Positions 4,563 through 33,596 of a stretch of DNA of 41,951 bases are shown in pieces. The DNA comes from Diploschistes diacapsis. Lineage: Eukaryota. The notes under the pieces are model-generated. The model worked only from the letters and a program-made list of their open reading frames with translations. It did no database searches and had not been told where the DNA came from. Each line of letters begins with the position of its first letter. Position 1 is the first letter of the stretch. The position numbers were made by a program, and so were the translations under genes. Location of the stretch: the NCBI GenBank assembly GCA_023645945.1, contig JALAIB010000044.1, positions 1 to 41,951 on the forward strand, written 5' to 3'.

Positions 4563-6703
4563 GATTAGGTCTCACTAACGAAGTATTGATAGGTGAAAGA
4601 TCACGCAGGCAAAAGCCGCGAGAGATTTCTGGGAGTTGAACACCTCTTCTCGCACATGAAGGTACCACTGTGTCAGGAGGCGGCGATGAAAGCATCAGCC
4701 CTATAGCCTTACGTACTTCAGCTCATTGTGTGCACGGACCATGATCCGGACTCCAGTACGGAAGTTGTATCTACCAAAGATTCACCAAATGCTAAAGTAC
4801 CTCTATCAGAGCCTCATATGAGACAATTACTATCAAGGGAAATCTCGCGATAACCAAGAACGCTCTACTTGCGAGACTCGATTAGCGACCCAAACGGAAC
4901 CTTCATAAGCATCCTCTCCCCCATCCTTACTCTGAGCGAAAATCCAAGGCCAACGTATACCTTTTTGCAACGCTATCGCTTTGGTCCTCGATGCATACAT
5001 AGATCGCTCCTGATCACCGTTGAATACTTTTCAAATGTCTGCTAATAAAAAAATACCTCACAATTCATAGGCACTATGGCGACTGAACCCCTTGCTTGCC
5101 TGGAGTAAGCCAAGTGCGTGAACCAAACCAATTCACATGGGAGACATCCACGTCGGTGACGGCTGCATCTCTTCCCTTGGCCTAGGTCACCACTATCTCT
5201 ATAGCATTGACCTTTTCTTCATAAGCCTAGAGCTCGGTGGCGTAAACCGTTAAACGATCCATTCCCACTAGCGCTACCTATATCTCCCGGGCAGACCGGT
5301 GCAAAACTCTGCTCGTTGTTGTTGGGGGCCTCTGCGCGCCTCAAGGGGTTCGGGATCGTAATTTCAAGTTTCAATCCCGCGAGTTCCGGAATAGCAAAGC
5401 TAAGGCGAGTCTGCTAGAATACTCCGAACCGTGACTACGGAGCTCGAAGCCGATATCGATGTCCTAAGCTTCGAAGGGAAATACAAGACAAGAAGGTGCA
5501 GACATGTATATTTCGGGGCCTGTACAAAGGATAACAGGCGGTACGTACCAAACATCTACTGCGGCAGTATGTCCGGTTCACTCCTAGCAAGCTCTTGAGC
5601 ACACTAGCTAAGATAGAAGTTCGAAGAAGGCACACTGCAGCAGAACTAGCTTTTAGAATCTCGCTCTCTTGGTTTTTCTAGCTAGACTACAAGCATAGAG
5701 GTGGCCCCATCGAGGTAGGTATTGCATTAGCAATAAGCGAATACCTCTGTACCGTTGGATGTGATTGCTCTGTACCGGTTGACATTATGCATCGATAGCC
5801 ATGCCCATACGTATCCCCATCTACCACTCCAGAGCATGGATTGGGGAACTCAATACCGCGGTATTCGAAAAATATAGGTCGGCGCGGTCGAGAATGACTG
5901 AGTCTATAGCCAATACTTCTATGATATTGTAGCTTGACTCAATCGAAAGAGTGATTCGCCGCAAATTTTCAAATTTCAAAAAGTCCAAGCGTCACACCAC
6001 TGTTACTCTCGGCATACACCAGATCCATGGATATAGCAAGAAATCAATTGGGGGATTCCCTACCTATTCAGGTCATACCTCCCAAAGCAGGAAGAAGAGA
6101 CCTCATAGTAAACAGTCGGTACCGCAATGACCCATCATCAATTCAACTCAGAGCCTTCTTCCAAGCGACTGCTCTAGGCTGGTAGGGTAGTCCATAGCAC
6201 ACTGAACGAGCAACTGATGAAAAACTCCAGTATTAGTATCCTGAAAAATCAGGTGCCCTCGAAAACAGGAATGTCATCGTCACAAGACTTTCGTGCCCGT
6301 ACAAGACTTCCTAGCGGTCGCTCCCCGGCAAAACCATTATTCCGCGTTGAGCAATCCCCTGACTCCTTTCACGAGGACTTACATGTGCCCTTCTGCAGAA
6401 ATCAGGTGTTTAACACACACGCAAACACCGCAATGACAAATACAGATACCATAATGCAGAATATACTATGTATATAGCAGAGCGTCATTACGATACTTTC
6501 CGTTCCTCCCTACTTTTGCGTGATTCCTCCAACACTGCCTATTCTTATCCTCCGTACCGCTGGTCCCCCATCGGCGCTCTGACAATATCTCGCCAGCGCA
6601 TTGGCCTCCGCTGGGCCATTGCTATTGCCATGGCGGTACTGCTAGTAGAACCCCGCGGCGCCGGGTTGGGAGCTTGTCAGTCCAGACTGGAATCGAGGAG
6701 GAC

Positions 6704-7034
6704 TCATAGCAATAGCATTGAGAGGCTGTTTGCTAGGATGCAAACTCTGCTGCCTTTCTTCCCTCCTTCCCCATCTTCTTCCCCATCTTCATCTTCTTCC
6801 TTCCAATCGTTGGCTGGAAAGTACTTCTCCTCATCTTCATCATCGAATCCATCCTCTTCGTTACACTGTTCCTCGCATTCATCCTCATCCTCATCATTAG
6901 CACTCAGCGACGTACTGTGTCAAGCGTTAAAAAGCAAGCGGCAGCAGCGTATCCAAGCACTGCATCCTCCTAGCTTCCTTCTGCCAGCCAGGAGCCTCCC
7001 TTTACCTCCCGTCGTCACAAAAGAATCTTTCCAT
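6704..7034 (-). other. Possible small very acidic protein (~79 aa, 2 exons, intron 6915..7005), or relic of a longer gene
   Basis: ATG at 7034 gives MERFFCDDG, then an AG|GTAAAG donor and a TTAAC...CACAG acceptor, continuing in frame as STSLSANDEDEDECEEQCNEEDGFDDEDEEKYFPANDWKEEDEDGEEDGEGG to TGA at 6704-6706. Not in the ORF track; the splice model is inferred. Confidence 0.3.
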
Positions 7035-7121
7035 TCAAGGTAGCAAACAGAATTATCGCCTCTCAACGTTTGGACTCTGACCAACTGCAGTAGCACGCAT
7101 TCACAGACAGCGAGCGAAAAA

Positions 7122-7898
7122 ATGGCCATCATCAGACGTGGTCCAGCCATTCCCGGCGCTACCAAGCTTCCCATGCCGCCAGGCGTCGTCAAAACCGCAG
7201 ACGGAAGGTTCACCTTGACTGCCGCATACCCAAGAATGACTGTAGTCATCCGCCCCTCCAAGAAATCCTCCATCGCCGCCACACGGAAGGCTACGAAATC
7301 CTCCGCCATCTCCGCCGCACGCAAAGCCAGGAAATCCTCCGTCAAGCGTAACTCCGGGGCAAAAGCATCTCTCCCCCGTCTCACTATCATCACCCGCTCC
7401 GCCGCGGCCAAACGCTGGTCTAAGACGAAGGCGCCCCTCCCGCCCCTGTCCATGATCACCCGCTCCGCTGCGAAGAAGGCAGCTGCCCGACAACGTGTAG
7501 TCCTTACGCTCAAGGTCCCCAAGCCGCAGGAGCCCCCCTCTCGCCCACCCACCGGCCTCGTCTCGCCTCTCGGATGCGTTCCCATCCCCGACGAGCTCGA
7601 ACCATTCCCGGACTTCGACGAGAGCATGGCAGATTTGGCTGCCCTAGAAGAGGCCGAGGCCGCAGCTCGCAGAGAGGCCGAGGCTCGGGTCGCGCCTAGG
7701 CGGCTTCGTCTGGTGTGCAGACCACCCGGCGAGAGCGGCAGCAGTGGCAGCAGCGATGGAGGAAGCAAGGGCAAGAAGAGGTCCCACGAGGAAAGCGAGG
7801 TTGGAGATGAGAGCAAGGAGGTGGGAGGGCAGGAGAAGAGGCCGAAGATTGTACTTCGCCTCAGGGTGGGTGACAAGGTCACTCACCTTAGAGAATGA
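7122..7898 (+). CDS. Orphan Lys/Arg/Ala/Ser-rich basic protein (258 aa) with internal repeats
   Basis: Intact ATG-to-TGA ORF with AAAAATGG start context and coding-like GC3 bias. Internal repeats KSSIAATRKATKSSAISAARKARKSS and LPRLTIITRSAAAK / LPPLSMITRSAAKK; KKRS NLS-like segment. Confidence 0.65.
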   Translation: MAIIRRGPAIPGATKLPMPPGVVKTADGRFTLTAAYPRMTVVIRPSKKSSIAATRKATKSSAISAARKARKSSVKRNSGAKASLPRLTIITRSAAAKRWSKTKAPLPPLSMITRSAAKKAAARQRVVLTLKVPKPQEPPSRPPTGLVSPLGCVPIPDELEPFPDFDESMADLAALEEAEAAARREAEARVAPRRLRLVCRPPGESGSSGSSDGGSKGKKRSHEESEVGDESKEVGGQEKRPKIVLRLRVGDKVTHLRE

Positions 7899-8702
7899 GG
7901 TAGACGTGTTTTGGCGACCCATTGCGGAAGGTGCATCTGGGAAGGCAGTTTGTCTTTAGGTTTTTGTTTTTTCCCTTGAGCATGGCGATGAATAAGGGCA
8001 TTGGCTTGTGATACCCCAAGGAGCATTGGGTGGTAAGGATATAGAATTTGGATTGGCGTACGCAGAAATGGAAAGGTGCAGTCAGTGAGACCAAATGGCA
8101 TGCCTATGTGATTCTGTACATGACATGGCGTGCTTTGGAAGTGGGAGGTACATATCCCAGTGCTCATGTATATGAAGAAGAGTCCGGTGTGCTTACCTGT
8201 CCTACCGTTGCTGATTTCTCTGCAGACCAATTAGGTCAGTTCCCTGCACAAAAATATCATGCACAATCTCAATGACGGTGATAGCAGCACGTCCCAAAAT
8301 GCCTCACAATCATTATACATGTTTGCAAATTTGCTTTCAATTGTGTTGGTGAAGCTGAGTTACATAAGCAAGCTCTAACTTCTTCAGCCCTACCCATCCA
8401 CAGCAACCTCCTTTCGACTTGTCATTACCACCTAGGTGAAGGGATGCCACATATTTGAAGGTCAGTCATTTCAAAAAGAACAAACAATATCCTGATACTA
8501 CCCCTGAGATAAACTATTATTGCTGAACACCTTGAAATGCTCTGGTCGACTGGTCACCCTGGAATACTGAACAGCCCCTGACAGACGAACAGATTTTGGA
8601 TGTTGAAACCCTTCCCTTCAACGATTTTAACTTCGAAAATCTGCTCTGGAACAAAGCGACGCCGGGTTTTTACATCCGAGGGTCAGGACAAAGGTGCTGG
8701 AA

Positions 8703-9670
8703 CTACGCCTTGTCCAGAACGCTTTCAAATTTGAGCTGAACATCTTCTGCGGTTATGCCCAAGAGGAGAAACCGCAGGACGGCACTGCACAATTTGCAGG
8801 ATGTTCTAGATATGAGGCTTCTCTTCCTGATGGGATCTTCCCGGGTGCCCTGCGTCCAAAGTCTACTGGCTTCCAACATTGTAGAGCAAAAAAACTCCGA
8901 GGCGATATAGTAGTGGTTGCACATCGGCACATCGCAGGGGGCCATTGCCTTTTCCAAAACGGAAGTAGATCTGAGAGCTTAGGATCGGACAAACGGCTAG
9001 AAAGGAAGCTCAGCCACGGAAAACTGACCGTGACGGTAGTCTTCAGATAAACGTTTGTGGGGCCACTGGGGAGACTCAGGCCCATCCCAAATCTAATCAC
9101 GTTGCTCTGCTTTGTCTCTGGACTGTTGCCACCGATATGTTTGATGATGTTGGAAAGCATAACCCTCTGTATTTTCGTGTACATGCTGCCATAATGATTG
9201 TTTCTGGGATGGGTGACGTGAAGATAAAAGTGAGGATCCGAGCCCGCGAGGACCGACGGGTTGTGGCGTGCCTTTTCAAGACATTCCCAATCCATATGTA
9301 CCTCCTCCAACAGAAAGATTGTGCCCGTCCAACCGATGCATTTATGATCAAAGTTAGTCTCCCACTTCTGCGCATCTTCGAACAGGCTAATGTTCGTGAT
9401 GGGCCCTGCATCCCGAACAAAGAAGGCTATCAAAAGCAGGCCGTTGGAGTCGAATGGCGAGCGCGTACTTTCGAGAATGGTCAATTTGTTGTCTCAGATA
9501 ATCGATTTTGGCTTGTTAAGGTGCATGGATTCACCAAGCGCTATCTTGAGACAGAATCCATCATCACCGTCCAGAACCCCGTTCTCGATGATCTGCGGAC
9601 GTATCTCAGCTGGTAGCGAACGGATGGTTGTCGCTGTTTTCTCGTCAGTCAGTCGTGTCTTCCCCTGCAT
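8703..9670 (-). pseudogene. Disrupted gene with N-terminal F-box-like motif
   Basis: ATG at 9670 (TATAAA ~60 nt upstream) reads MQGKTRLTDEKTATTIRSLPAEIRPQIIE, hits an in-frame TGA at 9494-9496, and the same frame continues as ORF 8753..9484. A possible frameshift leads into ORF 8703..8957. Confidence 0.45.
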
Positions 9671-10506
9671 GCTCTATCAGTTGCTAAGCTATAATACCTT
9701 TTTATGAACCAAACAAGTTTGAGGAGCGCTTTATAAGCTCCCTCTTGGCTTTTGATGCGAAACAGCATGGCTGGATTCTGCGAAGTGGGTCCAGCTCCTT
9801 TTCCGACTTGAATCTCTTCAAGGGTTTGACAGTTTCCGACAACACCATATACTAGGATAGGGTCCTACGGTGTGCAACCGGCCATGCTGTTATTTGGGGC
9901 ATGATTGGAATGGACGCGGTCTGCGCAGAAATTCATGATTGAAACAGAAAAGGGACAATTTTTCCCAGCTGAATGGCTCTTTGGAAACAGACGCGCCCTG
10001 TATTCATGGACTAGTTAATTTGTACTGTGGTTACACGTTTTAGCATCATATACTCTTTTATCATAGACAATGTGTCCAGACTTGTTCAACGAAAGATATT
10101 ATAATCTTGAATGCATCAGAGTTACGGTGGCTCATCAAGTCATTCTATGTGAGCTTCAAAAAGAATGGAACTGTCCCTACGTTTAAACCAACGTCGTTGG
10201 TGCGAGTCGTTGGTGTGATAGTGTTTGAAGCACGGATAGTCTTAAAGGACAAACCTTCCCGTTCTAGTATGAGTGCACCATCAGAGGATTTTTAATGGGG
10301 TACAGAGACTGCTGTTTTTGGTCTACCGAAAGTGAATAAGTGCTCCATGTGCATCACTGCTAAGGCCCAGATCATCAGCAACAACACATCAATGCGATTA
10401 AGAGCATAGAATATTAAACGGGCAAATTATGATAAGGCCTTTGCGAATATATCCTGCGGGAGAATCGAGCCCACATGCGCAAACCGTAAAAGGGGAGTAG
10501 TTAGCT

Positions 10507-10945
10507 CTAGAGAGTATCGCACCAAGGCACTATCCAATCTTCACCCAGGTGTACTGATGTGTAAGAAGTAATGAGATTACGCAACAGTCGTCGGTCCATT
10601 GGGTCGGTGAGAGGCACTAAGTTGCGTTCCGTGCAAATCGTAAGCACTCTGTCCGACCTGACGACTCGAAATCGCAGACTGATTTTAGCTTCACACGCAT
10701 TACAGTACATGGCATCGCCAACTGTCGATGCGAAGGGATGCCGTTGTGATTCCTTGGTAATAATGCCGCTACCTCGGCCAAGAATCTCTCGTCTCGAAGA
10801 CGTAGGTGAGGACAGAGAGGGAAGTCCCAGGGCGCTGTTAGCTGTACGTAGACCTCCGACGTATGAAACCAAGCGAATGATTGATAGTGGGTAGATTGCT
10901 TTCCTCGATAACCGCCAATAATAGTTCGTTTGGCAAAGACACAGG
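10507..10945 (-). pseudogene. Degraded F-box protein relic
   Basis: Minus strand from ~10945 reads PVSLPNELLLAVIEESNLPTINHSLGFIRRRS* (F-box LPxELL...SLxxxxRR pattern). A different frame (10507..10872) has YCNACEAKISL...TERNLVPLTDPMDRRLL, resembling C-terminal CxxC...RxLG...PxD motifs of fungal F-box proteins. Confidence 0.45.
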
Positions 10946-11975
10946 CTGTTGATCTGCCTCCTAGCTGGCCTTGTATCGCTTGTACTAAGGTTGATAGTTA
11001 ACGGTGATAGTTCGAATATAGCAGGCTAGTGTAAACCTAGGGCTAGCCGATGTTGATACTGCGTAACCATGTGGTCCTTCTGTACTAGCGAACAGTCATT
11101 TTTGTCCGTAGAGTCGACTCGTCAAGTTGGCAGATCCTCTTAACGTCACGTAGGTATAAAACCTTATGCCATGGTACTTCAAGTCATAGTATTAAGATCA
11201 TCGCCCCTCGCAGAGTACTAGGGTGAAGGATAGAGCCACTGTTTGTATATGGAACAGACATCGGACCGAGGTTGTAGAAAGTTGTTCGTAAGAAAAGAAA
11301 AAAAGAAAGAATTCACTTCATCCTTAGTCTCTAGGCATGCTATTATTGCCTGGCATTTCCCGAGCCTTTGTGTCGCCATAAAGTGGTGAAAGAGAGCTAC
11401 TGGGTTCTTGATATTACTTGCCTCGATACCTCCTCCAGGTCGTGCTCTGCTTTGCTTAATAATTACCAGTGCACCTAACCCCTCCTAGCATAGTCGATGG
11501 CTGTGGAGTCCAGGTTACTTAACCAAGGTCGTTATTGCCGGGGATACTTGGAGTTGGAAGCGGAGAGATGAAGCTTCTGTGTAGCACTAACGAAGAGAAG
11601 GCAGCGTGAGCAAAGGGTTAGACCTGTGCGCTACCGTATGCAAGAGTGCATCAACCTCGCTCGCACCTTTGGCATCGCGTAGTAAGCACTCGAAACGTAA
11701 ATCGCTTGATCCTTTTTTGTCTATAATGTGTCTGTCTCTAAGCGCACGTATTAATTAAAATGCCTTTTCCGTATATGTACTGCTAAGAGTAGCAGCCCAT
11801 GCCCTTCCTCATGACCCTGTGATTCTCTACCGTTTGGATAAAGAGGTGCTAAGCAAACCCAAGTCCCCTGCCCAAAGAGAATGCTATAACCCGACGCTAT
11901 GCAATCGTGGCTATTATATACTCATCATCAAGCATGCTCCCAATCATTATATGCTCCCGTTCTGACCTAACTCTT

Positions 11976-14900
11976 TCACTCCGCGAGGACCTGTCGAAGC
12001 ATGACATTGAATCCATCCGCCAGCTTCGAGATCTCGGTAATCTCAGGCTTGACTGGCTCGCCAGCCGTTCTTCGCAGGTGTGTTGCCTTCTTTGCTCGTC
12101 GTTTGCGCTCCGCTGCTATGGGATCCATATCCTCGTCCGCCGATTCCTCGTCTTCGGATTCGGAGGTGTTGTAGTTGAATTCTTGCAGATCGGACTGGGT
12201 CACAATTAGCACTGTTAGAATGTAGGTTAGATAACAACTCACGTCGTTGAGCCCGAAGTCACTGCCCCTAAAAGTGTTAGCGCCAGGGGCATTCTGCGTT
12301 GGCATCCCACTGATGGTGTCAGCTGCCATCTTCTGTCGTGTCTTGTCTTGATGCCACTTCTTCCGTGCTGACTGCCATTGAATCAGCTCGTTGATCTCGG
12401 AGACAGCCTTGTACTCGTCGATTTGCTTCGACTCTGCGGCACCTTGGAAGAGGGCATTCATGTCCAGTTTTCCGCCAGCTGGCCCCTTTCGCAAAAATTC
12501 AAGGATACCCTCGAGCCAATCCATCAATTGGGCGAACAGACCGTTGTCGTGGATGTGAACCTCATGCACGAACTTGTAGAAGTCATCCTCATGTCGGGCG
12601 CAAAGGTCAATGAAAGCTTGAACCGTCTGATTTGGATCGGCAGACACATCTTGCCGCTGAGCTTTATCTATAACACCTATTGCATCGTCTGCGAAATTGG
12701 AAAAGTCAGTAACGGAGTTGTAGACGTTTGCCGATTTGTAGACTCGTATCAATGGTTCGTAGAAGATGGTGAAAAGATCCCGGAAGAGCCGAAGTGTCAC
12801 GGGTTCCTCAATGACGGAGAGCATCATAACTTTGTCTCGAAGGCGAGTGCTCATCCTAAGATATTGCTTGAGCGACGCAAAGAGCTGCGCGCCTTGCTTC
12901 ATCTCTTCATCGACGTTTTCAACCGCGCTGTTCCATGCAACGTAAGCATTGAAGACCTTGCCAATTTGTACCGGCGTTAGGTCTGGAGCTATCTGGTCGG
13001 ATCGTAAAATGGCTACAACAAGGTCCACATCATCCGCCACAGCTTCGCTTCGTATATAGTTCTTTGTATTTTCGGGAGAGTTGCAGAATATGTTGATCTT
13101 GTTACATAGTACGGGATCGGCAATCTTCGTTGCAAGAGCGTCTACCTGCTTATGAAACGACCTGATGCTGTCATTGATAGCCATGCCAAATACTCTCTGG
13201 GCCAGCGATTTCGATCCAAAAGGTTGCGCCAAAAATAGGTCGAGAACACCACTCATGACCAAGGCAGGATTGGCAAACCGGATGACTTGTTTCAGCGGTG
13301 TATAGGGTAACATGGAATGAATACGCTTGGCCTGCGCAAATAGCTCGGGAGAATTATCTTCTGCGAGAAAAAGGTGGTAAAGGGTAGCCGCAACTCTGCT
13401 GCACGTTAGCGAGAGCTTGAGATAGCGAGTCTGATACTTGCTCTATCCGCAGCCATTCTGCAAACTTCTTGTACTCAACCGCAAGGTCTGCTATCTTGTC
13501 CTTGGCTCGAATCTCCGCGAAAAGCCTTGATAGACCATCTGCGACGCGTTAACATCACACTGGTCAGTCGTCAAGATATACACACTGCTTTCAACGATAT
13601 CTCTCCTAAATTTTTCCATATAGACGTCCAGCTCCGCGGCACGCTGCCTAGCTACCTCATAGAACCGTTTCTGCTCTTCTATCCTCTTATGATCCATCTC
13701 CTTCCGCCTCTCTACATCCAGCATCTCTTCCTGGTTCAAGTTAATGGAAGGGCCGGAGAGGAACTCAGTGATTGCTTTCGAGCTCGCGATCTGCTGATTT
13801 TGTATCAGGTTTCTTAGAAAAGCTCGCAACGAAACTCTCTGATCCTCCCTATACAACACAACCTCCCTTTTCACTTCCGCTGAAGGCCTTGGAGATTGCG
13901 TTCTTGAACTCTTTTCAGAAGTCGAGACCGCCGACGTTGAACGCTTGTGGCTGATCGGCAACGCAAGTTTAACCGGATGGCCGTCCTCTTGAGTTGTAGA
14001 TACAGACGATATGGAAGAAGCATCGTTGTCTTCGCCAGATAGGTTGAAAATACTCATATGCCCATGTTGCTTGGTTTTCCTCGGCAATGGGACCAACGTC
14101 TTCCCGGGGAACTCCATCCGAAGCCTCTTGTGCAGCGCTCTGAAGTCACCGTACCGTCGGCCAATGTACCTATCGGACATGCCACCTTCTTTTACTCTTA
14201 TGATGAATTCGGCATGCTGATGATACCTAACCGTTCGCCTTACCGATGTTGTCCGCACGGCTGCTATATTGAGATCCCAGCCATTGATGTTTTGCCCTTC
14301 AGGCTCGTTCATGACCAAGCCTTGCTGGTTCGCCCCTCGGTCCACTACCTCGAGCTCAGAAAACTTGATTCTTTCCTCGTACCCAGATGCGGTCGGCAAA
14401 CCAGACACCATCATGATCTCCACCAACTTTTGTGCTTTCAAAGCCAGCTTTCTGCGCTTTGTCTCCTCAAGGCGATCCTCTGACGACGAGATATGCTTAT
14501 TCGCAAACAACTCCAGGAACTATGTGACTTTAGCATCCAATTTTATCCACATGAGCCGTGTTCCTAACCACTTGCAGCTTGTCCTGCCAAAATTCTTTTT
14601 CTCTTGCCTGGTCGAGGAATGGGAAGTTGCGGACATGATGGACGAAGATGTACCGTAGAATAGGCAACTCCGAATCGAGGGGGGCGACCTCGCCATAGTC
14701 CGAGCGGAAGGGTGCGCCAAACCTCTGGAGAGCTGTAGGTGAAGCGAGTTCGTTGATTTCATAGCTGACTTGCTGGGATATCAGCTCTCGCTTTAAGTCT
14801 GCAAGTATTGTCAGTGAAATGCCGAGGATGTGTTCAAGATTTCTGACAGTGTTCTTGCTTTCCGGTCAATACAGTCCCAGGCCGAGGCACTGACTGTATC

Positions 14901-16461: not shown

Positions 16462-17959
16462 TCAGCGGAATACTACCTCTGCCGGCAGCCGGAAGCTGGC
16501 GCAAAGCATGCGCTTGCTGGGTGCTACATCCCTCACATCGAAGATGTCCAGCTCATTTTGCCCGGGCAGCATCGTGTGTTCCAACCTCCGCGAGAGCTCT
16601 TCGCATATCTCCTTCTTCTGCGATTCGTCGATATTGCTTCTAGAGGAGAAAGCAGAGAAGTAATACACATGAACCATGGGCAACTTGCTGTGTGTGTAAG
16701 GGCTGAATAGATCCTCCTGACCCTTGTACAGCCCTATAAAGGCATCCAGGAAGGCGGTCGCGCTGGCCGGCAGATTCATGACATAGTGATCAAAAGTCTT
16801 CGGCTGGGTGAGGAAAGACCGTGTTGGAGAAGGTTTGGAATGTATTTTCTTCATTGCATACAATTTCCTTCTTGGAGTAGCATCAACCCGGTGATTTTCC
16901 TTAAGGAGATCCCGTGCCGATCTCTTGATGAAATCACGCCCATCTTCATTGAAGGGCGTAACAAACGGACCAGCCTTATTGAGTGTGATAGCGGTGATGA
17001 GGCCATGATAACTGTCAGGGTTCAAGTCATTTGCCCAGACAAATACCTTTTTCTTGCCCGCAGGGATGGCAAATGGGCCGATCCCGGCCATCACGTCGCA
17101 TACAGCCTGGCCTGGTTCGAACTTGGCAACAAGGCGCTCATGCTCCGTACTCAACCTACCGTTCCAGTATACTTTCGAGTAGTCGAATTTGAACTGACAA
17201 TTTTGCTCTCTGACCTCCACTTCAAGGGATGGATCTCCGGCAAGTAGCTCATATTGAAACGTGCGAAATTGGCTTCGAGCTCCTACCGCATCGATTTTGT
17301 TAATAACCGTGCGGACTGCTGGGTTTTTGTCAAGCAGGACTGCAGCTATCATTTGTCTGTGTGGAAGCCATTCTTCACGAAGGTTGAGATGGGCTTCGAT
17401 TTTTCAGCATGAATACATGGGTGCTAAGAGTTCCCTTGATGAACGTACCCACATGTCCTACCATGGTAAACCCCACTGGTATACCGTGAGCCCCTTGGTT
17501 TGCTTCAGGGGGCAGGATGGCGGTTATGATGTCGCCTATGCTCAATTTAGCCTAGCATCAACCCCGGGGAAATCTCAGCTGACTGTAGGCCCAGTCCTCG
17601 TAAGATAGATGCAGGTCATATGGGAAGATCGAGATTCGGCCTTCATCCACAAGAGTTTGTAAAGTTGGGCTCCAGGTATGGGAATCATCGGGGCGAATGT
17701 CAGGCTGTAGAAGCATAGCCTTTTGTCCTCGTTTACTGGCCTGGTCAGATGGAACGGGTCTGATAGCTGATATGCGTTCTACCTCGAGCAGTTCCCGACG
17801 CAGATGCGAACGCAAAGGGCCAATCTGGTTGTCCTCGAAGACACGAGCGGCGGCAAGAGGTACAGACTTTTTGAAGAAGCTGCGGTCAAGGACCTGCATT
17901 GCGCGATTGGTAGGCGGACGGAACATGACTGGTATTTGCGACGTTCCTGCTGTGGACAT
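16462..17959 (-). CDS. TRM5: tRNA (guanine-37-N1)-methyltransferase Trm5; introns 17536..17583 and 17394..17448
   Basis: Motifs GFTMVGHVAHLNLR (after splicing), TVINK, FDYSKVYWNGRLSTEHERL, VCDVMAGIGPFAIP, ANDLNP, HYVMNLP and VRDVAPSKRMLCASF. Confidence 0.95.
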
Positions 17960-18830: not shown

Positions 18831-20830
18831 ATGGCGTTGACCACCAATTTGCGACAAGCAGTGCGGAAATATCTGCCAAAGCATCCAAAGGAGATCCTCG
18901 TGGCAGACGACGATGTCACGCATTTCTCCATCGCTCATCCAAAGACCCTTCCATGGTTCTCTAGTCCTGTAGCCGACGGCGAGCACGCCGGCCACGGACA
19001 TGGTGCACATGGTCCGCACGCAGCTCCAGGCGAAACTCAGCTTGGCCTCGAGTCTCCTGAATCAAACTCTTTGGATGGGAAGGAAGGCACTCGAGTACAC
19101 ACTCACCACCTAAGGGCAGCGGACGGCGAGCCAGAGCTCAAGCGAGCACATGAATCAAGCGTGATCCAGTTGTTCTACGACCTTTTTTTCGTGGCCAACC
19201 TCACGACATTTACTTCCGTTCACGAAATCAACGATCCGGCGAGTATGTGATAAACCCTTTACCATTCCTCTAGCGCATGAGTTAACGTTTCTCAGCACTC
19301 AAATCCTACGTCGGTTTCTTTGGGATTCTATGGTTTACCTGGCTTCAGGTGGCGCTCTTCGATATCCGCTTCGGCGGTGATTCCGTCTTTGAGCGTCTAT
19401 GCAAGGGGCTACAATTTGGTGTTATGACCGGTTTTGCTGTTGTTGGGCCTGCTTATCAAATTGGGTGGGACGACAACAACACCAAGGCTGCCCAAGCATT
19501 AGTTTCCTTCCAGACATTGTCGATAATCCTAATGGTCAGCCGCCTCATTATTTGCGCACAATATGCGGTGGTCATCTTCTGGTTGAGAAAATATAAGAAA
19601 ACATGGGCCCCGCTAGGTCTCCACGTCCTCGTGCTTTTCGTAGCCGCCATGATCTTCTTCGGACTTTACTTCTCCTTTGGCGAAGAGTCAGGCGACAGTT
19701 CACTTATAGCGTGGTACGTTATCATTGGACTCGAGGCCTGCGTCATCCTCCTCATCTCCGCCAAGTACAAATTCTTGAGTTTCCGAAGAACCTGCATTGT
19801 CGAACGCCTGGGTCTTCTCACCCTCATCATTCTCGGTGAAGGCGTGATCGGCCTCTGTGGCTCCATCCAGAGAGTGGGTAGCGATCAACAATTCGGGCCA
19901 GACATTATAGGCATGATCATCTGTGGCGTGGTGATCATCTATGCCCAATGGATGCTCTACTTCGACCAGACGGAGAGCGAACGCGTCGGCACCTTGCGCC
20001 AGCTCATCTGGACCATTCTGCACTTCCCTTACCACGTCTCCATTCTTCTGCTCGTGGAAGGGGTGTCCCAGCTCGCTGTCTGGCGAAAGCTAATCGACTA
20101 CTGGATCATCCTCTACAACCAACTCAACACGTTAGACATGCCAACGAGCGCCGACACCGTCGACGAAGTCGTCCAGAACCTTACCGAGGTGATGAACGAG
20201 TATTTCAACATATTCTCAGAGGGCCTCGCACAGCTTAAGTACACGCCCCCGGACCTCTCACAGAACTACACCATCCTCGCCAACGCTTTCAAGGACTCTT
20301 TCGACGCTGCCAACCGCACGACAGTCAACTACACCTTTACAATTCTCGACCAGATCTCCGACATCTACGGCGCGGGCGCTGTCTTTGCGGCGGAAAGTTT
20401 CGGCGTCGAACCGCCCGAAAATCTAGCAGAGGAAGCCAACACGAGCGAGGAGTATCTGGCGGCGCTGATCCAAAATACCTTCAGCACCGTCTTCATCTAC
20501 ATGTTCGTCTGCGCCGGCCTCTCGCTGATCTTCACGTCGATCATGTTCTTCTTCGGCAAGCGCAACAAGGTCCGCGGCGACTTTCTGAACATCTTCTTCC
20601 GTGTTCTGATGGGCCTCGGCCTGACGCTGGTGGCGAACATGGCGATGAGCAGCGACCCGAATTTTCAGAATGCGTATCAGGTCTATGCCTTTGGTCCCTG
20701 GATATTACCGACGGTGACGCTCGTGTTTGCGGTCGTGGTGGTTGTGGATAATATGCTGATTAATTATGTGCGGCATCTGGTTACGAGTACGGGACAGAGG
20801 GGGAATTATGCCCATGCTAACAGCGTGTAA
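18831..20830 (+). CDS. Low-temperature-requirement A (LtrA)-like multipass membrane protein; intron 19243..19295
   Basis: Motifs QLFYDLFFVANL, LWFTWLQVALFDIRF, ERLGLLTLIILGEGVI and LHFPYH, plus many TM segments. Intron GTATGT...GTTAAC...CTCAG joins the two ORFs in frame. Confidence 0.88.
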
Positions 20831-21432: not shown

Positions 21433-21584
21433 CTAGTTCCCCTTCTTCTCATTCACGTACACGCTGTCCTTGTTGCTACGGGGCGGCATGCTGCGTTCTT
21501 TGCCGTGAAAGTCCCAGTTGTTAAGGTATCCGGTACCGATCTATATTAACCCGCTGGCGTTAGTCCTGATGACACCAATCCTCG

Positions 21585-21627
<43 letters not shown>

Positions 21628-22202
21628 AAACGCTACACTTACGCTGAGATATGTAGCAAAGCTCAACCAGCCCAAATAGGGCACCAAGCACCACCCCGCA
21701 ACCTCATCGACCTGGCCCCACGTGTACGTCAGGTAGCTCACGACGCCGGTCAAGCATACGATATCGACGGAAGCCTCGACGGGGCGCTTGAGGCCAAAGA
21801 ACAGCGGCATCCAGACGAGGTTCATGGCCAGCTGCAGCGTGTACAGGGTGGCGCCGTGTTTCGCCAGGTTGCGGACGGTGGGGTCAAGCGAGGCGCTGCC
21901 CGTGTGCCAGGCGCGGTGGGCGGCGTAGCCCATCAGGCCGTAGAGGGTGGTCCACACGGGGCCGAAGATCCATGGCGGCGGGCGGAGGGGAGGCTGCTTC
22001 AGCGCGAGGTAGGTGCTCTGGGTGTTCTTGGCTTTTGCGGGGTTAGCTGCCAGTTGCGTCGCTGGGGGGCATGTGCCCGGCGCGACTCACGCGAGACAGC
22101 GAAGCCGACGGCGCTGCCGGCGACGACGGGGGTGAGGATGGCGAGGGCGGGGATGGCGAAGAATTGGCTTGGGAGGGTGAGGGAGGAGATGTAGGTTGTC
22201 AT
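21433..22202 (-). CDS. TspO/MBR-family translocator protein; introns 22032..22090 and 21541..21642
   Basis: Spliced product has TYLALKQPPLRPPPWIFGPVWTTLYGLMGYAAHRAW, QLAMNLVWMPLFFG, LVPYLGWLSFATYLS|IGTGYLNNWDF; stop TAG at 21433-21435. Confidence 0.93.
21591..21624. repeat. (CT)17 microsatellite inside TspO intron 2
   Basis: Perfect dinucleotide run read directly; explains the ERERER artefact in the ORF track. Confidence 0.97.
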
Positions 22203-23799: not shown

Positions 23800-25805
23800 T
23801 CACAACCATTCTATGAAGTTTGGCTCCCTCCTTGCTTGAGATAATCTCCTTTCCTGTTTACTAGGCTTGTAACCTTGCTCCTCCTCTTGCTCATAGCCTA
23901 TCGACATTCCCTTATCATGCTCAAGATCCTAGAAAGTTTTCAGCCAATACCCCATCCAAGATACCGCTGATAGGAGACTAAATACCTCTTCCTCCGACTC
24001 CTCCGAAGAAGGTTCAGGTGGGTCTTCCCCGTTTGGAGCCTCCGACTCTTCGGGCTCGGTTTTTTCTCCTTCCGAGTCCGGCTCGGTTTCTTCTTCAGCG
24101 GCCTCGGGGACGGTTTCAAACTCAGTTTCTTCGTCTCCGGATTCGGAGCTTGACGAGGTGGGGTCTTCGGGTTCGAGGGCGGCCTCGGACTTAGAGGGCT
24201 CTGGTAATGGAGGAAGTTGCTGCGGAATAGGTGCTGTGGGTGGTGGAAGTGGTGGGAGAGGAGCGAATTCCGTGACGACAATAGGTGGCAGTTGGGGAGG
24301 GCCTGCGTTTGATTTAGGCTGCGATGCGGGAGGCGGAGGTGCAGCGGGCGGAAGTGGCTTAGGCGCTGGTAGCTGAGGGATTTGTACAGCAGGGTTCTCT
24401 TGCTCATGTCCAGGGCCCTTTGGAAGCTGGACATCCGCTAAGTCTGGCTCAGCTATCGGTTGAAGGGGCTGAACGGCTGACAGCGATGACCCAGGTGGAC
24501 AAGATTTGGTCTCTACCACTTGCGGTACGGGCTTATGTAGAGGAACCTTGGACTCTAGAACTGGCGATGCGGACTCAGGTCGAGAAACCTTGGAATTTAC
24601 TACTGATGGTGCGGGCTCAGGTGGAGGAGCTTTGGACTCTACCACTGGTAGTGCGGGCTCAGGTAAAGGAGCTTTGGACGCTTCCACTGGCAGTGTCGGC
24701 TCAGCTAGAGGAGCTTTGCGTTCTAACGCTGACGGTGCGGGCTCAGGTGGAGGAGCTTTGGACTCTACCACTGGTAGTGCGGGCTCAGGTAAAGGAGCTT
24801 TGGACGTTCCCACTGGCAGTGTCGGCTCAGCTAGAAGAGCCTTGGAGCCTAACACTGGTGGTGCGGGCTCAGGTAACGGAGCTTTGGACGCTCCCATTGG
24901 CAGTGTGGGCTCAGCTCGAGGAGCTTTGGACTCTGACGCTGACGGTGCGGGGTCAGGTTGAAGATCTCTAGGTTCAAGCACTTGCACTGGTTTTGACTCC
25001 GGCTCACTCTCCACTGGAAGTTGATCGAAAGTATCCACCACAGGAGCTGATTTTGACATTGAAACATGCGGCTGCTGAGGCTGCTGGTCAAGCGTAACAA
25101 GTGTCTTACCCAGTGATAGAGTTGATATAGCTGCATGCGGAGCTATAGGCTCTGGGACTGTCACCTTGGGAGAAGGCGGATCAACGCGCACCTCAACCGA
25201 ATTCGGCTGCTCGGCCATGGAGATGCATTCGTGAACATTATCTGGCGATACGCTAGGAACAGCTGCTTGATCTAGGCGGGGCTGCGCTTGCGGTGATGGT
25301 GCCTTTGGAGGTGTTCGAGAGGCCTCTTTTCTCCGGTGGTATCTCCTGGGATGAAATATCCTATGGAAGATTTGTCGGATCGCAAGACGAGGCGATCCCA
25401 TTCTCCTTCCGGACCTGTATTGTTGTCCACTGGCCTTTGCTTTTCTCTTCTCCACGATAGCTTCTTTTTTGGCCTGCCGTTTCCTTGCCTTCACCTCAGC
25501 TTTCGCTTCCTTCTTTCTAATCTTTGCTTCCCGAGCACTCCTATGCCTCGCCGCTTTGAAGTCTAGCAAGGCCTTTACCCTGAGAACCTCCGCAATATGG
25601 TCGGCCTTCTTCCTCCTTGCTTTTGCATCCTTATCCACCTTCCTCACAGCTGCCTCTGCGTCATTCTCAGCCTGCTTCCTCTTCGCCGTTTGTGTGGTCG
25701 GAGCTAGCTATACGTCAGCACGCCTAAGACAGTCTTTGACATTCATCAAATTCGCCTCCTCTCAAGAACCATGTCCCAGGTCATACAGTAAACCATATAT
25801 GCCAT
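23800..25805 (-). CDS. Orphan protein: Lys/Arg-rich helical N-terminus, Pro-rich 14-aa tandem repeats, acidic C-terminus; probable introns 25704..25786 (uncertain) and 23929..23985
   Basis: 572-codon ORF 23929..25647 extends upstream to a GCTGAC...TAG acceptor. A GAG|GTATTT...GCTGAA...CTAG intron gives a 43-codon last exon ending TGA at 23800. The start codon is uncertain. Confidence 0.7.
24469..24955 (-). repeat. Coding minisatellite, 42-bp (14-aa) unit x ~11, with a 126-bp higher-order duplication
   Basis: Units such as SKAPLPEPALPVVE, SKAPPPEPAPSALE and SKAPRAEPTLPMGA; near-identical DNA blocks start at 24608 and 24734 (126 bp apart). Confidence 0.92.
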
Positions 25806-28256: not shown

Positions 28257-29189
28257 GCAAAGATCACACTAGCGTAGAATCTATGGCTTACGTGATCCTG
28301 TAACTGTTGAGCAGACAGGCAGAGTGCATGGCTAAGTTCAGTTCGGAGGGGGTACTAGATTATTAATACATGCGTTGCCCAAAGGTAATGTTACATGAAT
28401 TTATGAGAATTATGCATGAAACATATATAAGGTTCTTGAGGGTCTTGGCGCCAAGTATCGACCTATATAAGCAGCTTCTTATATCCGAAAGCTGTCTTTG
28501 GGGTTAGATTGTTACTGTATATGGTGCTTCTTTAGGGCAAACCCTCCCAGTCAATAGTCGGAAAGGGCAGTCGCTGTAAAAGGCATGTCGAAGCGACATT
28601 GCGCCATAGCATACGGGTGAGAGGTTAGGGAACACCTGCATCTACATCTGCACTGTGCATCTGCATGTAACAACTATCTCCCATCTCGGCGAATGAGGAA
28701 GTTCATGGTCAATTATAGCTAGCTACCTTCGACATCCGGTCCGACGTTCCGAGGGTAGGGCATTAGCTAGCCATATCTTAACTCCGGAGATAAGATTAGG
28801 GTTCACCTACAGCCGAATGACTAATAGTATTTTGTACCTAGGTGAACAGTGTAGTCGTATTAGATAGATCTCTAGTCATGGCTCATGACTTCCATCATCC
28901 ATGTACAACTTGGTGTCCAGTTCACACTATTTCTGAATCCTCCTCATCGGGCGATAGATTGCTTAATTTGTTCTATATAAGTGTATGTGAATTGAAAATG
29001 TCGGTATCAAAGGGTAACTTCGTTGTTACTCTGGAGTCGGCTGTCTTTTCTTTGCTTCTTACTCTCAGACATACACCATATCCCAATGCAATGACGATGG
29101 TCTACAGCAGAGAAGTCCGAGGTTCATTGAATAGCCTACAATATACCGAGGTCCGACATCGACTCAGTTTGGACTAATCAAATCTTCAA

Positions 29190-30550
29190 GAACTCGCGCT
29201 TCACTAGCTAAGTAGGTGCAAGTGCCCGCGAATGCTGACAAATTGCGAATGCCCGGTTGCTACTAACCAAAGTCCCAACCGAATACTGAAATGGAACAGC
29301 TCATCTATTACTCGAACATATTGTTGAGGGAGGGTTTTTGGCTAGCCGTCCCATCAAGACCCGCATCGTGATCAGTCAAAGCCCACCGCTTCGAAGCTGG
29401 TAGTCATGCTAGGACATTCCATACACACCAGCAGCTGTAAAGAAAGTCCCTGCTTATTCCTCGCCGGCTGTCCTGCCTGCTAAGAGCACTACATACCTAA
29501 CGATGGCTAGGGCGTTGCCTGCAAGCAAGAAAATGCCTCGAAATCGAGGCCCGCCTAAAGCATACGAAGTTGCTACACAGAAGATGAGACCGACAAAGTT
29601 TGGGGGTACTGCGAATGGTTGAGCTACGCTCGCTTGAAACCTGCCTTGTATCCGAGGGCTCGGACGATGGTGGACAGGAAGAGCGAAAAAGAGTAGATGG
29701 GACTAATGATCAGGAAGTTGCTGATGCTCAGGAACAGCGTGTCCAGACTTTGCAGCGCCAGTCGCACCCAATGCCTAGAAAAACACCCCTGCTGCGACAT
29801 CTTGGCGAATTGTATGTCCCTGAGGAATTTTGTAGCCATTCGCTGCGTGGCCACGGCTTCCCCTTCCTCAAACGGAAAACTACGGCTTGCTTTATCTCCT
29901 AGCGCGATCAAGAACGCTGCGAGTCCGAGCTGGATAATAACAGCACCTTCCACGAAGAATATCCAGGCCATTCTGGATGCTCTATTAATCGCGATACGAC
30001 GACGCCCCGCTGGAAACCTATTCACTGACAGCCCGCATATGGAGTCTGACCGTGGCCTGTTGGAAGGAGGCCGCCTATAAAACCGCTAATGGGGATGCAG
30101 TGAAGAAAGATATACGCAATGCAAGCTTGTGCCGCTGATAGAAAGTTGCAATATAGATCACGAAATCACCGATCAAGCCTCCTTCGCCGAGACCGAGGAC
30201 TTTACGAGCCATGATGGGGTCTCTATACATCTCCATCGTGCGACGTTGACGATGGCTCATGCAATGACAAGTCCTGGCAGGTACTGGCGGGCACGGGATT
30301 GCTTGACAGCCTAGTTGATTCGGAGGGCAATGAGCGCTTATGGAGTATAGAAAGCTATCTATCCGCGCTCAAATCGCAGAAGACTCACCCATATTCACTC
30401 TATTCAATTCTGGAAAAAAATACAGGCCGAAAAGCCATGGCATGATGCGAAGGTCAAACTTGCGAACCCTACATTTTATGAACAAGTCGTTAGGCATATC
30501 CGTCCCTCTGTCTGGTCATTCTCAGTTACATTTTGCGCAGCTTCATAGTT
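29190..30550 (-). pseudogene. MFS transporter pseudogene, anion:cation symporter (Dal5/Tna1 allantoate-nicotinate permease) family
   Basis: Fragments in canonical order across stops and frameshifts: VRKFDLRIMPWLFGLYFFPELNRVNMG followed by a GTGAGT donor, LGLGEGGLIGDFVIYIATFYQRHKLALRISFF, AWIFFVEGAVII, IYSFSLFLSTIVRALGY, RFRGIFLL, NLSAFAGTCTYL. Ends are approximate. Confidence 0.85.
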
Positions 30551-31080
30551 ATTGCCTGTTGCCTCTATCATGTATATTCTGACCAACCACTAAGAAGGAG
30601 CGCTGAGCTATCACTGCTACACAGAAGGAGAACGGCCAATTGAACACGTCTTTTAAAGAAGAAGGCTTGTAGCTTCGAGGGCCGCGCCCTGGGATACGTT
30701 CCCCATCCGGTGAAAGCTATTCCTGCCCTGGCAGCCCTCAGATTAGGCTGCAAGATTCTCTCTACAGAAAGGCTCCGGTTGATGCAGGCATCATGCCCGT
30801 AACTTTAGGAACTTGAGTTGAATCTCAATTAAAGGTGCAGCATTTGAACATTGGGATTTGGCGATCAGATCCAATTGAGATTACCATTCCCGCAAACAAG
30901 GATCTTCGGCTGTGGCGGCTCGAGATAGCGGCATTTTGAGTAGGGTAAGCAAAAACAGAGCAAGGGCAGTCAGCGCTTTGAATTTGAAGATTAGATAGCG
31001 ACATTTTGTCGTGCACGGTAGGTTATATTCCTAATCTTTTCCGCATTTCCAAATCCGTGCAACTTTGCAATTGTATACCG

Positions 31081-32106
31081 ATGTCCAAATTACCCATCAC
31101 TTTCACATACGGGCCCTACAATCGTATGGCCGCTCTCGCGAAAGGAGAAGTTCAGCTTGCAGGAATAGCACTCGACTGCGTGGCAATCGACCACCGGCGA
31201 GATGTGTTGAGTGGAATGATTGGAAGCCACGAGTTCGACGCATCAGCGTCGTCTGCTTCGGAGTACATATGCCGTTGTGCTGCCGGTGATCGAGATCTCG
31301 TTGCTCTCCCTGGTTATTCATCCGGGGTCTTCCGACACGGCTTTCGCTGTGCATAAAAACTTCGTTAAGAAGCCTAGGGATCTCCACGGTAAGAAAGTCG
31401 GTGTGCAACTGCATACCATGACTGCTGCCGTTTCGATCCGAGGGTTACTACAACAGGCCGATGTCGACTTATCGAGCATAGCCTGGGCAGAGGGCGCATT
31501 AGAGAAGCCAGGCAGTCATGGCGTCTCTAGCGCAAAGCCGTTGCTGAAGCGGGTGAAAAGGGTGAGAAACGAGACAAACCAATCTCTGTCCCAACTTCTT
31601 GAAATGGCGAGATTGCCGCCATGATAGGTAAGTCTTTCTCTGTTAAGTCAGTTCGGGTAAAATTCAGATGCTTGCCAGGCCCAAAATATTCCCTTACCAG
31701 GTGCCGACCTTCCCCCCTGCTTCCACACTTGTCCGCACGTCAAGCGCCTCTTCCCCGACTTCAAGTCCGCCGAAAAGACCTATTTCCGCGGAACAGGCAT
31801 CTTTCCCATCGTGCACCTGCTTGCGATCCAGCGTAAGGTTCTCGAGCGATACCCCTTCGTCGCAACTTCTCTGTTCAACACATTCCAGGACTCTAAGCCG
31901 AAGCGCTACGGCAGATGCTCTTCTTTGGAGAGCTAAGGTATATGCTTCCGTGGTTGCCGGCAGAACTGGACGGGATTGACGAGGTGTTCCAGATCTCGAG
32001 AGGTGGTCCATCTGTTTATGGCTTGGAGGAGAACCGGAAGATTCTGGAGGCGCTGGTGGGCTTCTTAGAGAAGCGAGGCATGATCGAGGAAGGGTTGTCA
32101 AAATGA
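31081..32106 (+). pseudogene. 4,5-dihydroxyphthalate decarboxylase-like / type-2 periplasmic-binding-fold protein, frameshifted; intron 31628..31700
   Basis: MSKLPITFTYGPYNRMAALAKGEV, EFDASASSASEY, ALPGYSSGVFRHGF, PRDLHGKKVGVQLHTMTAAVSIRGLLQ, LSQLLE/GEIAAMI, VKRLFPDFKSAEKTYFRGTGIFPIVHLLAI, RYMLPWL and YGLEENRKILEALV match this family in order but lie in different frames (shifts near 31343, 31603, ~31725, ~31905). Confidence 0.85.
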
Positions 32107-32922
32107 GAAACTTTTTGCCGGTATTAACGGGCAGTATTTGAAGGTCTAAGGAAATGTTCGAGAACTTGCTGACGTCGAAGAACCTGCTATGGCAGCACAC
32201 GCGACAAATTAGGATCTGCTCAAAAAGAGAAGATTAATTGGGACCATAGAGGTCCGTGGAGTACTCCAAGGTCATCAATCTTGTGTCTCACCTCACTCAA
32301 AGGCGGCGAAAAGCCTCGAGGGTGTTCACTGACTGCTGGAGCAACCACTAATCACTCGAAACCAGGTCCTTTGTAAAATTCAAGCTGTTTTCCGACAGTC
32401 AGAACTTTCTCCTCTGACGCCATGCATCGTATCAACAGCCCGTGGCTTGAACTGTGGCTTGCCGTCAGCCCCAGGTTCCATCCAATCAAGACCCGCTAGT
32501 CACGAATGCCGGCCGCCTTTCCCCTCAAACCTACGGTCACGCTTCTCCCATGGAGCCGTTGCCGTATGAGCTTCATGCTCTGGCCTTGTGAAGTGTGCGG
32601 AAAAGGCATGGCAGGTTCTCTCCACCGAGCCGTACTGGATAAGCCAAAAAGCCTTTTGGCGACGGGCGATTTGCTGAGAGAAGCGAGCTGTGAGCACTAG
32701 CTAAGAGGATGTGAAGCCCTCGCAAGCCAAAGAGCAAGGCTTTGCTTCTTCTTGCCAGGCGCAAGACATGCGGTGACAGCTAAGAAAAACCAACGACATA
32801 TTAAAGATAGGAAGTAACCCATCTCGCGAGTCCCAATTTCAACGTTCTTTATCACTTCATATCTGTTCACCTTCTGCGTCAACAGCCATCGATCGCTCAC
32901 TTCCGCTCCACAGCCCATCAGC

Positions 32923-33596
32923 ATGCGCTCCTCCTTCTTCCTCTCTTCCCTCATTCTCTCTACCCTCTCCTCCGCCTCCCCTTTTCCCTCCCCCAACGGC
33001 GCCGCCAACCCAACACCCACCCTCTCCAACCGCGCCACCTCCCCCAGGCTCTTCACCGTCCAAGCCTTCGAATCCCCCAACCCTTCCGGCGTCGGCCTGA
33101 CGGGCTACTACCTCTCCGGCTCCGGCTCCGGCGCGCTGACCCTCACCTCCACCGCGCCCAAGCCGCCAACAGTCTTCTACGTCGACAGCGGCGCGCACGC
33201 CTTTATCGTATTTCTCTCCTCCCCCAAAAAGACGAAATAAATAAAAAACCTAACCACCAATCAAAGGACGCCAACCCCCCGATCCCGGTCTACATCGACA
33301 CCTCGCAGGGTCTCCTCGCCGCGGGCTCGAGCCCGCCCAGCACCGCGCTCACGGTCCCCTTCTACCACCTGGGCACAGGGACGACGCTGTACACGGTGCA
33401 GAACGGGTACGCGACCGAGGGCGCCGCGGTGTTCCAGTGGGTCGGGAGCGAGAACGGGGCTTGGTTTGCGTGTCCGCTGGGGACAGGAGGGAAGGGCGGA
33501 CAGGCGCTGGGCCTGGTGAAGCAGATGACGGTTGTGAATCCCGACGTGGGGAATTGCAGCGCGGTTGAGTTGGGGGCGGTGGATTACGAGGCGTGA
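32923..33596 (+). CDS. Small secreted protein (~204 aa), fungal IgE-binding/PhiA-like cell-wall-protein type; intron 33208..33266
   Basis: Signal peptide MRSSFFLSSLILSTLSSA-SP. Intron GTATTT...CCTAAC...AAG joins the exons in frame. C-terminal WFACP...NCSAVELGAVDY two-Cys motif; strong GC3 bias. Confidence 0.8.

Follow-up and report, generated by a model that had tools for sequence, protein, structure and literature searches.

What did two genes once do together that now lie head to head, both broken, on a contig of Diploschistes diacapsis? The window analysed here is the whole of contig JALAIB010000044.1 (41,951 bp), one of 4361 in a 29-Mb fungal assembly (GCA_023645945.1), and the two genes are the remnants of a permease of the anion:cation symporter (ACS) type of the major facilitator superfamily (MFS) and of a protein of the Pht5/OphC family, that of 4,5-dihydroxyphthalate decarboxylase. 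A sequence-only reading had proposed that they formed a co-regulated unit for importing and decarboxylating (or binding) an aromatic carboxylic acid and had decayed together, a proposal that proved half right and lacked both the horizontal origin of the enzyme gene and a third, unlinked dead gene. We favour, with a probability of roughly 0.55, the view that the locus is what is left of an uptake-plus-decarboxylation unit whose substrate was a hydroxylated aromatic or pyridine dicarboxylate. What this dead, lineage-specific pairing marks, an unstudied and horizontally acquired branch of fungal enzymes, is real. The parts of the locus are:

28977..30571, minus strand: pseudogene of an ACS/Dal5-type MFS permease, placed by frameshift-aware alignment and tree, with an approximate 3′ end
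30572..31080, no strand: 509 bp from ATG to ATG, presumed to be a shared divergent promoter
31081..31627, plus strand: exon 1 of the Pht5/OphC-family pseudogene, with frameshifts at about 31345 and 31604
31628..31700, plus strand: intron of that pseudogene, 73 nt, GTAAGT...CAG (GT-AG), as read from the sequence
31701..32149, plus strand: exon 2 of that pseudogene, with frameshifts at about 31901 and 32101, a premature stop at 32104-32106 and the original stop at 32147-32149

Frameshift-aware alignment confirmed that both divergent genes are broken. The permease pseudogene, which runs on the minus strand from an ATG at 30571-30569 to a tail at about 28977, was aligned to residues 35-400 of Thelotrema lepadinum P0223 (MMC10_000720), with which it agrees at 206 of the 350 residues aligned (59%). 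Compared with P0223 it has lost about 12-17 codons to a deletion and carries seven frameshifts and five in-frame stops (30361, 30340, 30313, 30259 and 29456). The enzyme pseudogene, with its ATG at 31081 on the plus strand and four frameshifts, is identical to T. lepadinum P0206 (MMC10_000721) at 223 of 327 residues (68%) and is the single copy found in the genome. The outline given earlier had to be redrawn: the shared upstream DNA, estimated at about 530 bp, measures 509 bp between the start codons, the permease extends about 200 bp beyond the supposed boundary at 29190, and the stop at 32106 that had been taken as the other end is a product of the fourth frameshift. The database protein LQ340_000658 is a 163-aa model built around the breaks and is 100% identical to part of the enzyme pseudogene. 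Pfam returned zero matches for the window's own fragments of either pseudogene, and the families were assigned through homologues. The lichen relatives P0001-P0006 stop at the residue of the intron and the other fungal copies are single-exon (single-segment matches), so the intron was probably gained after transfer. Eight unnamed proteins (P0001-P0006, P0008 and P0226), 61-79% identical to the middle of the enzyme pseudogene, end at this same intron position; judged by sequence, they are probably intact copies in other lichen fungi.

Three sequencing runs were compared: X1, which may be the source of the assembly, and X2 and X3, from other studies, whose letters differ by a few percent. Among the differences listed for X2 and X3 (a further 71 substitution and 2 indel rows lie beyond these), there were zero gaps at the enzyme frameshifts 31345, 31604 and 31901, which X2 pieces span, or at the permease frameshifts near 30241 and 29632 within the X2 piece 29335-30354, and the X3 piece 31272-32300 had one gap only. 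The breaks in both genes are real and old, with broken alleles in two independent runs. Three permease indels (29836, 29965 and 30105) differ in both X2 and X3 and are thus specific to this lineage, which, together with further indels that X2 has of its own, indicates that decay is continuing. Although the assembly is fragmented, assembly error as the origin of the breaks is virtually impossible, since the same breaks recur in the two other studies and the enzyme pseudogene is also changed at 21 of 108 columns invariant in fungi and the nearest bacteria, where 17 intact fungal copies are changed at 0-8. With fixed disablements and relaxed constraint, both genes are pseudogenes. Among the neighbours, which had been claimed to be intact, the flanking old yellow enzyme (OYE) gene is one open frame of 493 codons. 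All 6/6 other Dal5-type loci fetched from the genome have stops inside apparent introns only. Repeat-induced point mutation was considered as the cause of decay and rejected, as the dinucleotide indices of both genes lack its pattern.

Both family assignments of the sequence-only reading held, on the basis of orthologue profiles, the match to the solved protein 9jp7 and the fold. The intact fungal orthologue P0009 matched one solved protein only, the 4,5-dihydroxyphthalate decarboxylase 9jp7 (E 3e-60, residues 3-325). A structure model of an orthologue (mean pLDDT 69) superposed on 9jp7 with a TM score of 0.81, the next fold matches reaching ≤0.52, and displayed a periplasmic-binding-protein (NMT1/THI5-like) fold, to which PF09084 matched weakly; modelling thus shows the encoded protein as predicted to have the Pht5/OphC version of this fold. 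Residues common to the enzyme and all three OphC proteins from phthalate clusters include Y14, D15, R16, E57, S59, R83, R86, H87, Y113, T116 and H224; the OphC core is kept while several columns differ, and the literature found does not name catalytic residues. By a hydropathy proxy, the best N-terminal window scored 0.8-1.6 in 10/10 homologues and 0.94 in OphC, compared with 2.3-2.6 in 3/3 true receptors, so the enzyme was most likely cytoplasmic and without a signal peptide. This makes the "binding" variant of the proposed unit unlikely and the label "substrate-binding protein" unfit: as regards an ABC receptor, the homologues have no leader peptide and no ABC genes occurred in the fungal loci scanned. 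NCBIfam gave 0 families for 3/3 enzyme queries, and the Atlas returned bacterial "substrate-binding protein" clusters only. A passage of a 2019 review (PMC6644310) describes the class of this enzyme family as unclear. In a 2007 study (PMC2375020), Aspergillus niger An15g07340 is annotated as 4,5-dihydroxyphthalate decarboxylase, with no homologue in seven other fungi; it is a candidate member of the present clade. Apart from that annotation, our literature search turned up no work on fungal members or on how they were transferred, though supplementary catalogues of horizontal transfer could hold the gene.

The origin of the enzyme gene was examined with a first tree, from which 10 of 108 homologue loci were omitted as short or interrupted matches, with a quick tree and with a careful 38-row LG+G4 tree, the constraint groups being chosen after earlier trees. 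All 13 fungal rows formed one clade (99/96) nested in Xanthobacteraceae-rich Alphaproteobacteria, and in the quick tree the pseudogene was sister to Thelotrema P0206 (SH-aLRT 97). Constraining the 14 nearest bacteria to group together without the fungi was rejected (p-AU 0.003), and so was grouping the fungi with OphC (p-AU 2e-38), both under LG+G4. Consistently, the fungal enzyme is 60-70% identical to Xanthobacteraceae proteins and 35-42% identical to OphC from three phthalate clusters, one of which is described in a section of PMC6051330 as the predicted pht cluster of Sphingobium SHJ. The tree shows that the enzyme gene was passed horizontally from Xanthobacteraceae-like Alphaproteobacteria to filamentous ascomycetes. 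Named fungal carriers among the matches were Thelotrema, five Xylographa species, Meristemomyces, Xylogone, Rhizodiscina, Oidiodendron, Diaporthe and Penicillium, and 9 of 80 metagenome loci also fall in the fungal clade. Placing Xylographa and Thelotrema in one clade gave p-AU 0.058, by which transfer between fungi is neither shown nor excluded.

For the gene neighbourhoods of the bacteria, the 13 nearest GTDB loci were taken, several of them close kin, with Pfam run on 128 of 168 open reading frames (ORFs): a class II aldolase resembling Mlr6791 occurred in eight (six of the eight close kin), a TctC receptor in nine and a FAD monooxygenase in four. The best solved relative of this partner aldolase is Mlr6791 (2z7b; E 2e-46 for the bacterial and 4e-20 for the fungal protein), which we take to be the decarboxylase of 3-hydroxy-2-methylpyridine-4,5-dicarboxylate in the vitamin B6 pathway. 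Its best NCBIfam match in 3/4 cases was 3,4-dihydroxyphthalate decarboxylase, far below cut-off, and one neighbouring monooxygenase passed the cut-off for 3-hydroxybenzoate 6-monooxygenase. Dihydrodiol dehydrogenase, reductase and nadC were found in 0/108 homologue loci, many of them short, and the Rieske matches in 7/108 (24-35% identity) covered the Rieske domain only. The earlier analogy to a conserved pair of Pht1/OphD and Pht5/OphC is therefore not supported, the donor lineage using TctC or ABC receptors and its neighbourhoods being devoid of phthalate-pathway genes. On a Microbacterium plasmid (L123, NZ_CP038257.1, 5312-12969), a distant Pht5-like gene is flanked by two class II aldolase genes and a Rieske dioxygenase set, so the pairing of a Pht5-like gene with an aldolase occurs outside the donor clade too.

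Five distinct fungal loci were readable, with 104 of 141 ORFs scanned. A transporter adjoined the enzyme in four of these five, head to head in two, and a FAD monooxygenase and a transcription factor occurred in two; the fungal enzyme is thus usually next to a transporter, but not the ACS permease. In L004 and L037 an MFS protein of the drug-antiporter type lies head to head with the enzyme. Locus L036 (FTLB01000213.1, 40-15200) contains an aldehyde dehydrogenase, a GMC oxidase, the Pht5-like enzyme, an MFS protein similar to those of L004 and L037, a salicylate-hydroxylase-like FAD monooxygenase, a transcription factor and a Mlr6791-like class II aldolase; this compact, intact fungal cluster offers the best chance of elucidating the pathway. 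In L040 there is a monooxygenase together with a gene that looks like a regulator, and L033 an amino-acid permease and a PEX11-like gene. Two genes with UstYa domains were also noticed just downstream of the enzyme (L004:7334-9506 and L003:3713-4030).

The permease has another history. The Thelotrema orthologue P0223 matched MFS_1 of Pfam (E 4e-25) and, in NCBIfam, TIGR00893 (E 2e-43) and HpaX (E 5e-29), both below their cut-offs; the best models being ACS members, the permease is assigned by these matches to the ACS (Dal5/Tna1) family. In the tree the pseudogene is sister to the Thelotrema copy (SH-aLRT 100), the two forming a fast-evolving second copy on a long branch, observed in no genome but these two and 49-59% identical to a widespread Pezizomycotina clade. 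The vertical paralogue persists, intact-looking, at C4235, where it groups with Gomphillus, so that an extra copy could have been lost freely. In T. lepadinum, which we take to belong to the same family as the source, Graphidaceae, the orthologues of the two pseudogenes have consecutive locus tags (MMC10_000720 and MMC10_000721) and consecutive accessions, and the ENA fragments lie on equal-sized contigs, which suggests that the pair is ancestral in the Thelotrema/Diploschistes lineage.

Unlinked to the pair, at G000:C2258 about 17414-17843 (L124:1372-1800), lies a broken Mlr6791-like class II aldolase gene with two TAA stops, a frameshift and an internal deletion, which lacks its C-terminal half. 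It is the sole Mlr6791-like gene found in the genome; three other class II aldolase loci are weak matches to queries of that type. A single query found no phthalate dioxygenase in the genome. Contig C2258 also carries, at about 1300-13200 (L137 and L135) and some 4 kb from the broken aldolase, a non-reducing polyketide synthase gene with acyltransferase, product-template, acyl-carrier and thioesterase domains (Pfam) and a ketosynthase in the translation; a Zn2Cys6-like regulator lies upstream of it, and a gene with a fungal-rhodopsin domain separates it from the aldolase.

From these observations a course of events can be proposed. A horizontally acquired cytoplasmic enzyme, to judge by its family and neighbours, would most likely carry out a non-oxidative decarboxylation of a hydroxylated ring, aromatic or pyridine, with at least two carboxyls, and a Mlr6791-type decarboxylase and a flavin monooxygenase would prepare the ring for cleavage. 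Such a hydroxylated ring with several carboxyls is suggested by the aldolase, the monooxygenase, the lack of phthalate genes and the side activity of OphC, the Comamonas enzyme also decarboxylating 4-hydroxyphthalate according to section 12 of a review (PMC13040137). The substrate was probably a natural hydroxyphthalate-like acid and not phthalate itself. A duplicated anion permease of Dal5 type, whose linkage is observed, would have come to lie head to head with the enzyme in the Thelotrema/Diploschistes lineage and imported the acid, while other fungi recruited other transporters. Diploschistes would then have lost the route, both genes decaying to a similar degree and the unlinked Mlr6791-like gene breaking too. 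As candidate substrates we presume hydroxyphthalates from lignin, lignans or orsellinate, for which the literature listed in a search gave no support.

Several findings weigh against such a unit. Adjacency of the pair, as read from locus tags, is known in one relative of the same family only, so shared ancestry alone can explain it, and no other genome paired the permease and the enzyme by tags or contigs among the best 120 of 322 permease matches, a weak negative. For the other lichen contigs with the enzyme no close permease orthologue came up, the next matches being 49-59% identical (again among the best 120 of 322), and the ACS permease is present in 0/9 other fungal loci, so that a conserved pair was not found in distant fungi. 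The Thelotrema permease is only putatively intact, its model being poor, with an apparent retained intron and truncation at 429 aa. The two head-to-head loci L004 and L037, 82-89% alike, count as one lineage. Without padding around the breaks, the permease is changed at 32/110 invariant columns and the enzyme at 18/107 (p=0.037), which would fit an earlier loss of the permease. The broken aldolase, being unlinked, could have died for other reasons, and an intact-looking monooxygenase, 46-47% identical to that of L036, persists in the genome. The linkage seen in Thelotrema only, the 0/9 other fungal loci with the ACS permease, the unequal unpadded decay and the surviving permease paralogue at C4235 speak for a permease that was a chance neighbour, with gene order inherited within one family, the enzyme acting as described above and each gene dying alone. 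We consider this unlikely but worth serious attention. Away from the breaks the two genes are decayed alike, with 18/71 columns changed in the permease and 17/88 in the enzyme (p=0.44; six settings of the padding gave p 0.15-0.68), by which a similar age of both losses is allowed, not proven; moreover, the flanking OYE and the six further loci of Dal5 type appear undamaged, and unrelated transporters adjoin the enzyme in four of five informative fungal loci. Of the claims of the sequence-only reading, the pairing is supported by the adjacent tags in Thelotrema and similar decay by the sites away from the breaks. Of the two observations that would speak against that reading, one, intact fungal homologues of the enzyme unlinked to this permease clade, was made outside Graphidaceae; the other was not, as the reconstructed protein does match the Pht5/OphC family.

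Other alternatives concern the substrate and the activity. A pyridine dicarboxylate formed when vitamin B6 or nicotinate is degraded, imported by a Tna1-like pyridine-carboxylate permease, would suit the relationship of the partner aldolase to Mlr6791, a B6-pathway decarboxylase, and the GMC oxidase, aldehyde dehydrogenase, decarboxylase and monooxygenase of L036 parallel the order of that pathway; we judge it improbable, as the GMC protein matches fungal glucose/aryl-alcohol oxidases much more strongly than pyridoxine 4-oxidase (E 2e-55 vs 1e-33) and the monooxygenases resemble salicylate or 3-hydroxybenzoate hydroxylases, MHPCO ranking far lower (E 1e-16). Quite improbable is another cytoplasmic enzyme or a ligand binder with this fold, comparable to Thi5, MqnA or MqnD: the fold hosts varied functions, most database names read "ABC transporter substrate-binding protein", many putative pocket columns differ from OphC and a second decarboxylase often adjoins the gene, but proteins of those types are 10-16% identical with TM ≤0.52, against 36% and 0.81 for 9jp7, and a leader peptide is lacking. 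Most doubtful of these is the idea that the protein is a genuine 4,5-dihydroxyphthalate decarboxylase, serving phthalate degradation in fungi next to a permease like OphD. The family and 9jp7-like fold agree with it, as does the ACS type of the permease, a family to which OphD presumably belongs, and databases and one paper (PMC2375020) name fungal genes so. It conflicts with the identities of 35-42% to OphC and 60-70% to Xanthobacteraceae proteins, with the replacement of the OphC motif PEYQ(L/M)TA by QLYTMTA, with the rejected grouping with OphC, with the absence of dihydrodiol dehydrogenase, reductase and nadC and the domain-only Rieske matches among the 108 loci, and with the single-query failure to find a phthalate dioxygenase in the genome.

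A lost uptake-plus-decarboxylation unit, the reading we prefer, can be extended tentatively: a single old transfer from Xanthobacteraceae may have given filamentous ascomycetes Pht5-like and Mlr6791-like decarboxylases and a flavin monooxygenase for natural hydroxyphthalate-type acids, after which unrelated permeases would have been recruited on several occasions and the entire route, unlinked parts included, would have disappeared from Diploschistes when it left bark. The compounds in question, derived from wood, lignans or orsellinate polyketides, and the bark-leaving ecology are our assumptions. Were this extension true, a natural substrate would explain the role of the phthalate decarboxylase family before plastics. 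Taken alone, the dead pair is unremarkable; it matters because it points to an uncharacterised fungal branch of that family with intact, easily expressed members and partner enzymes that recur. Characterising this branch would reveal what a family so far linked only to a pollutant acts on in nature, would correct the automatic labels "phthalate decarboxylase" and "substrate-binding protein" and could yield a new cofactor-independent aromatic decarboxylase. Since three genes decayed, comparative genomics of lichens could test whether they belong to one pathway.

Elsewhere in the window, a long frame at 19286-20830 (plus strand) has a bacterial low-temperature-requirement LtrA domain (E 6e-20) and adjoins a TspO/MBR gene at 21541-22086 (minus strand). 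A 592-codon Pro/Glu-rich frame at 23929-25707 (minus strand) contains repeated ESKAPxPEPA-like units, with 0 Pfam matches, and 32924-33596 (plus strand), an intact-looking gene with one apparent intron, encodes a small protein that begins like a signal peptide, also with 0 Pfam matches. As pathway partners, OYE, which had been named as a possible one, pirin, TspO, LtrA, MYND and the small secreted protein were each rejected, with 0/108 loci.

Among known systems, Pht5/OphC/PhtC (EC 4.1.1.55; 9jp7, from Comamonas testosteroni KF-1) resembles the fungal enzyme in full-length homology, fold, a length of about 330 aa, the missing leader peptide and the common R83/R86/H87/H224/E57 core. The fungal enzyme differs in its lower identity, its separate clade and its motif at 111-114; it has no phthalate dioxygenase, dehydrogenase or reductase nearby, was acquired by transfer and is dead here. 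The bacterial pht/oph cluster with the MFS permease OphD, as PMC13040137 presents it, likewise pairs a gene of the decarboxylase family with one for an MFS importer of anions, whereas here the permease is a duplicated native fungal Dal5-type gene and the donor bacteria use TctC/ABC receptors, so that the likeness would be convergent at best. With fungal Dal5/Tna1 (ACS) permeases the permease agrees in MFS_1 and in its best NCBIfam models and stands apart as a long-branch second copy. The uncharacterised Xanthobacteraceae/Pseudolabrys module (L082, L090 and L014), composed of TctC, a Mlr6791-like class II aldolase, the Pht5-like protein and a FAD monooxygenase, holds the nearest relatives of the enzyme, and its three enzyme types are kept in fungal L036; it is a bacterial operon, whereas fungi have differing transporters at the locus and the aldolase of this genome lies elsewhere.

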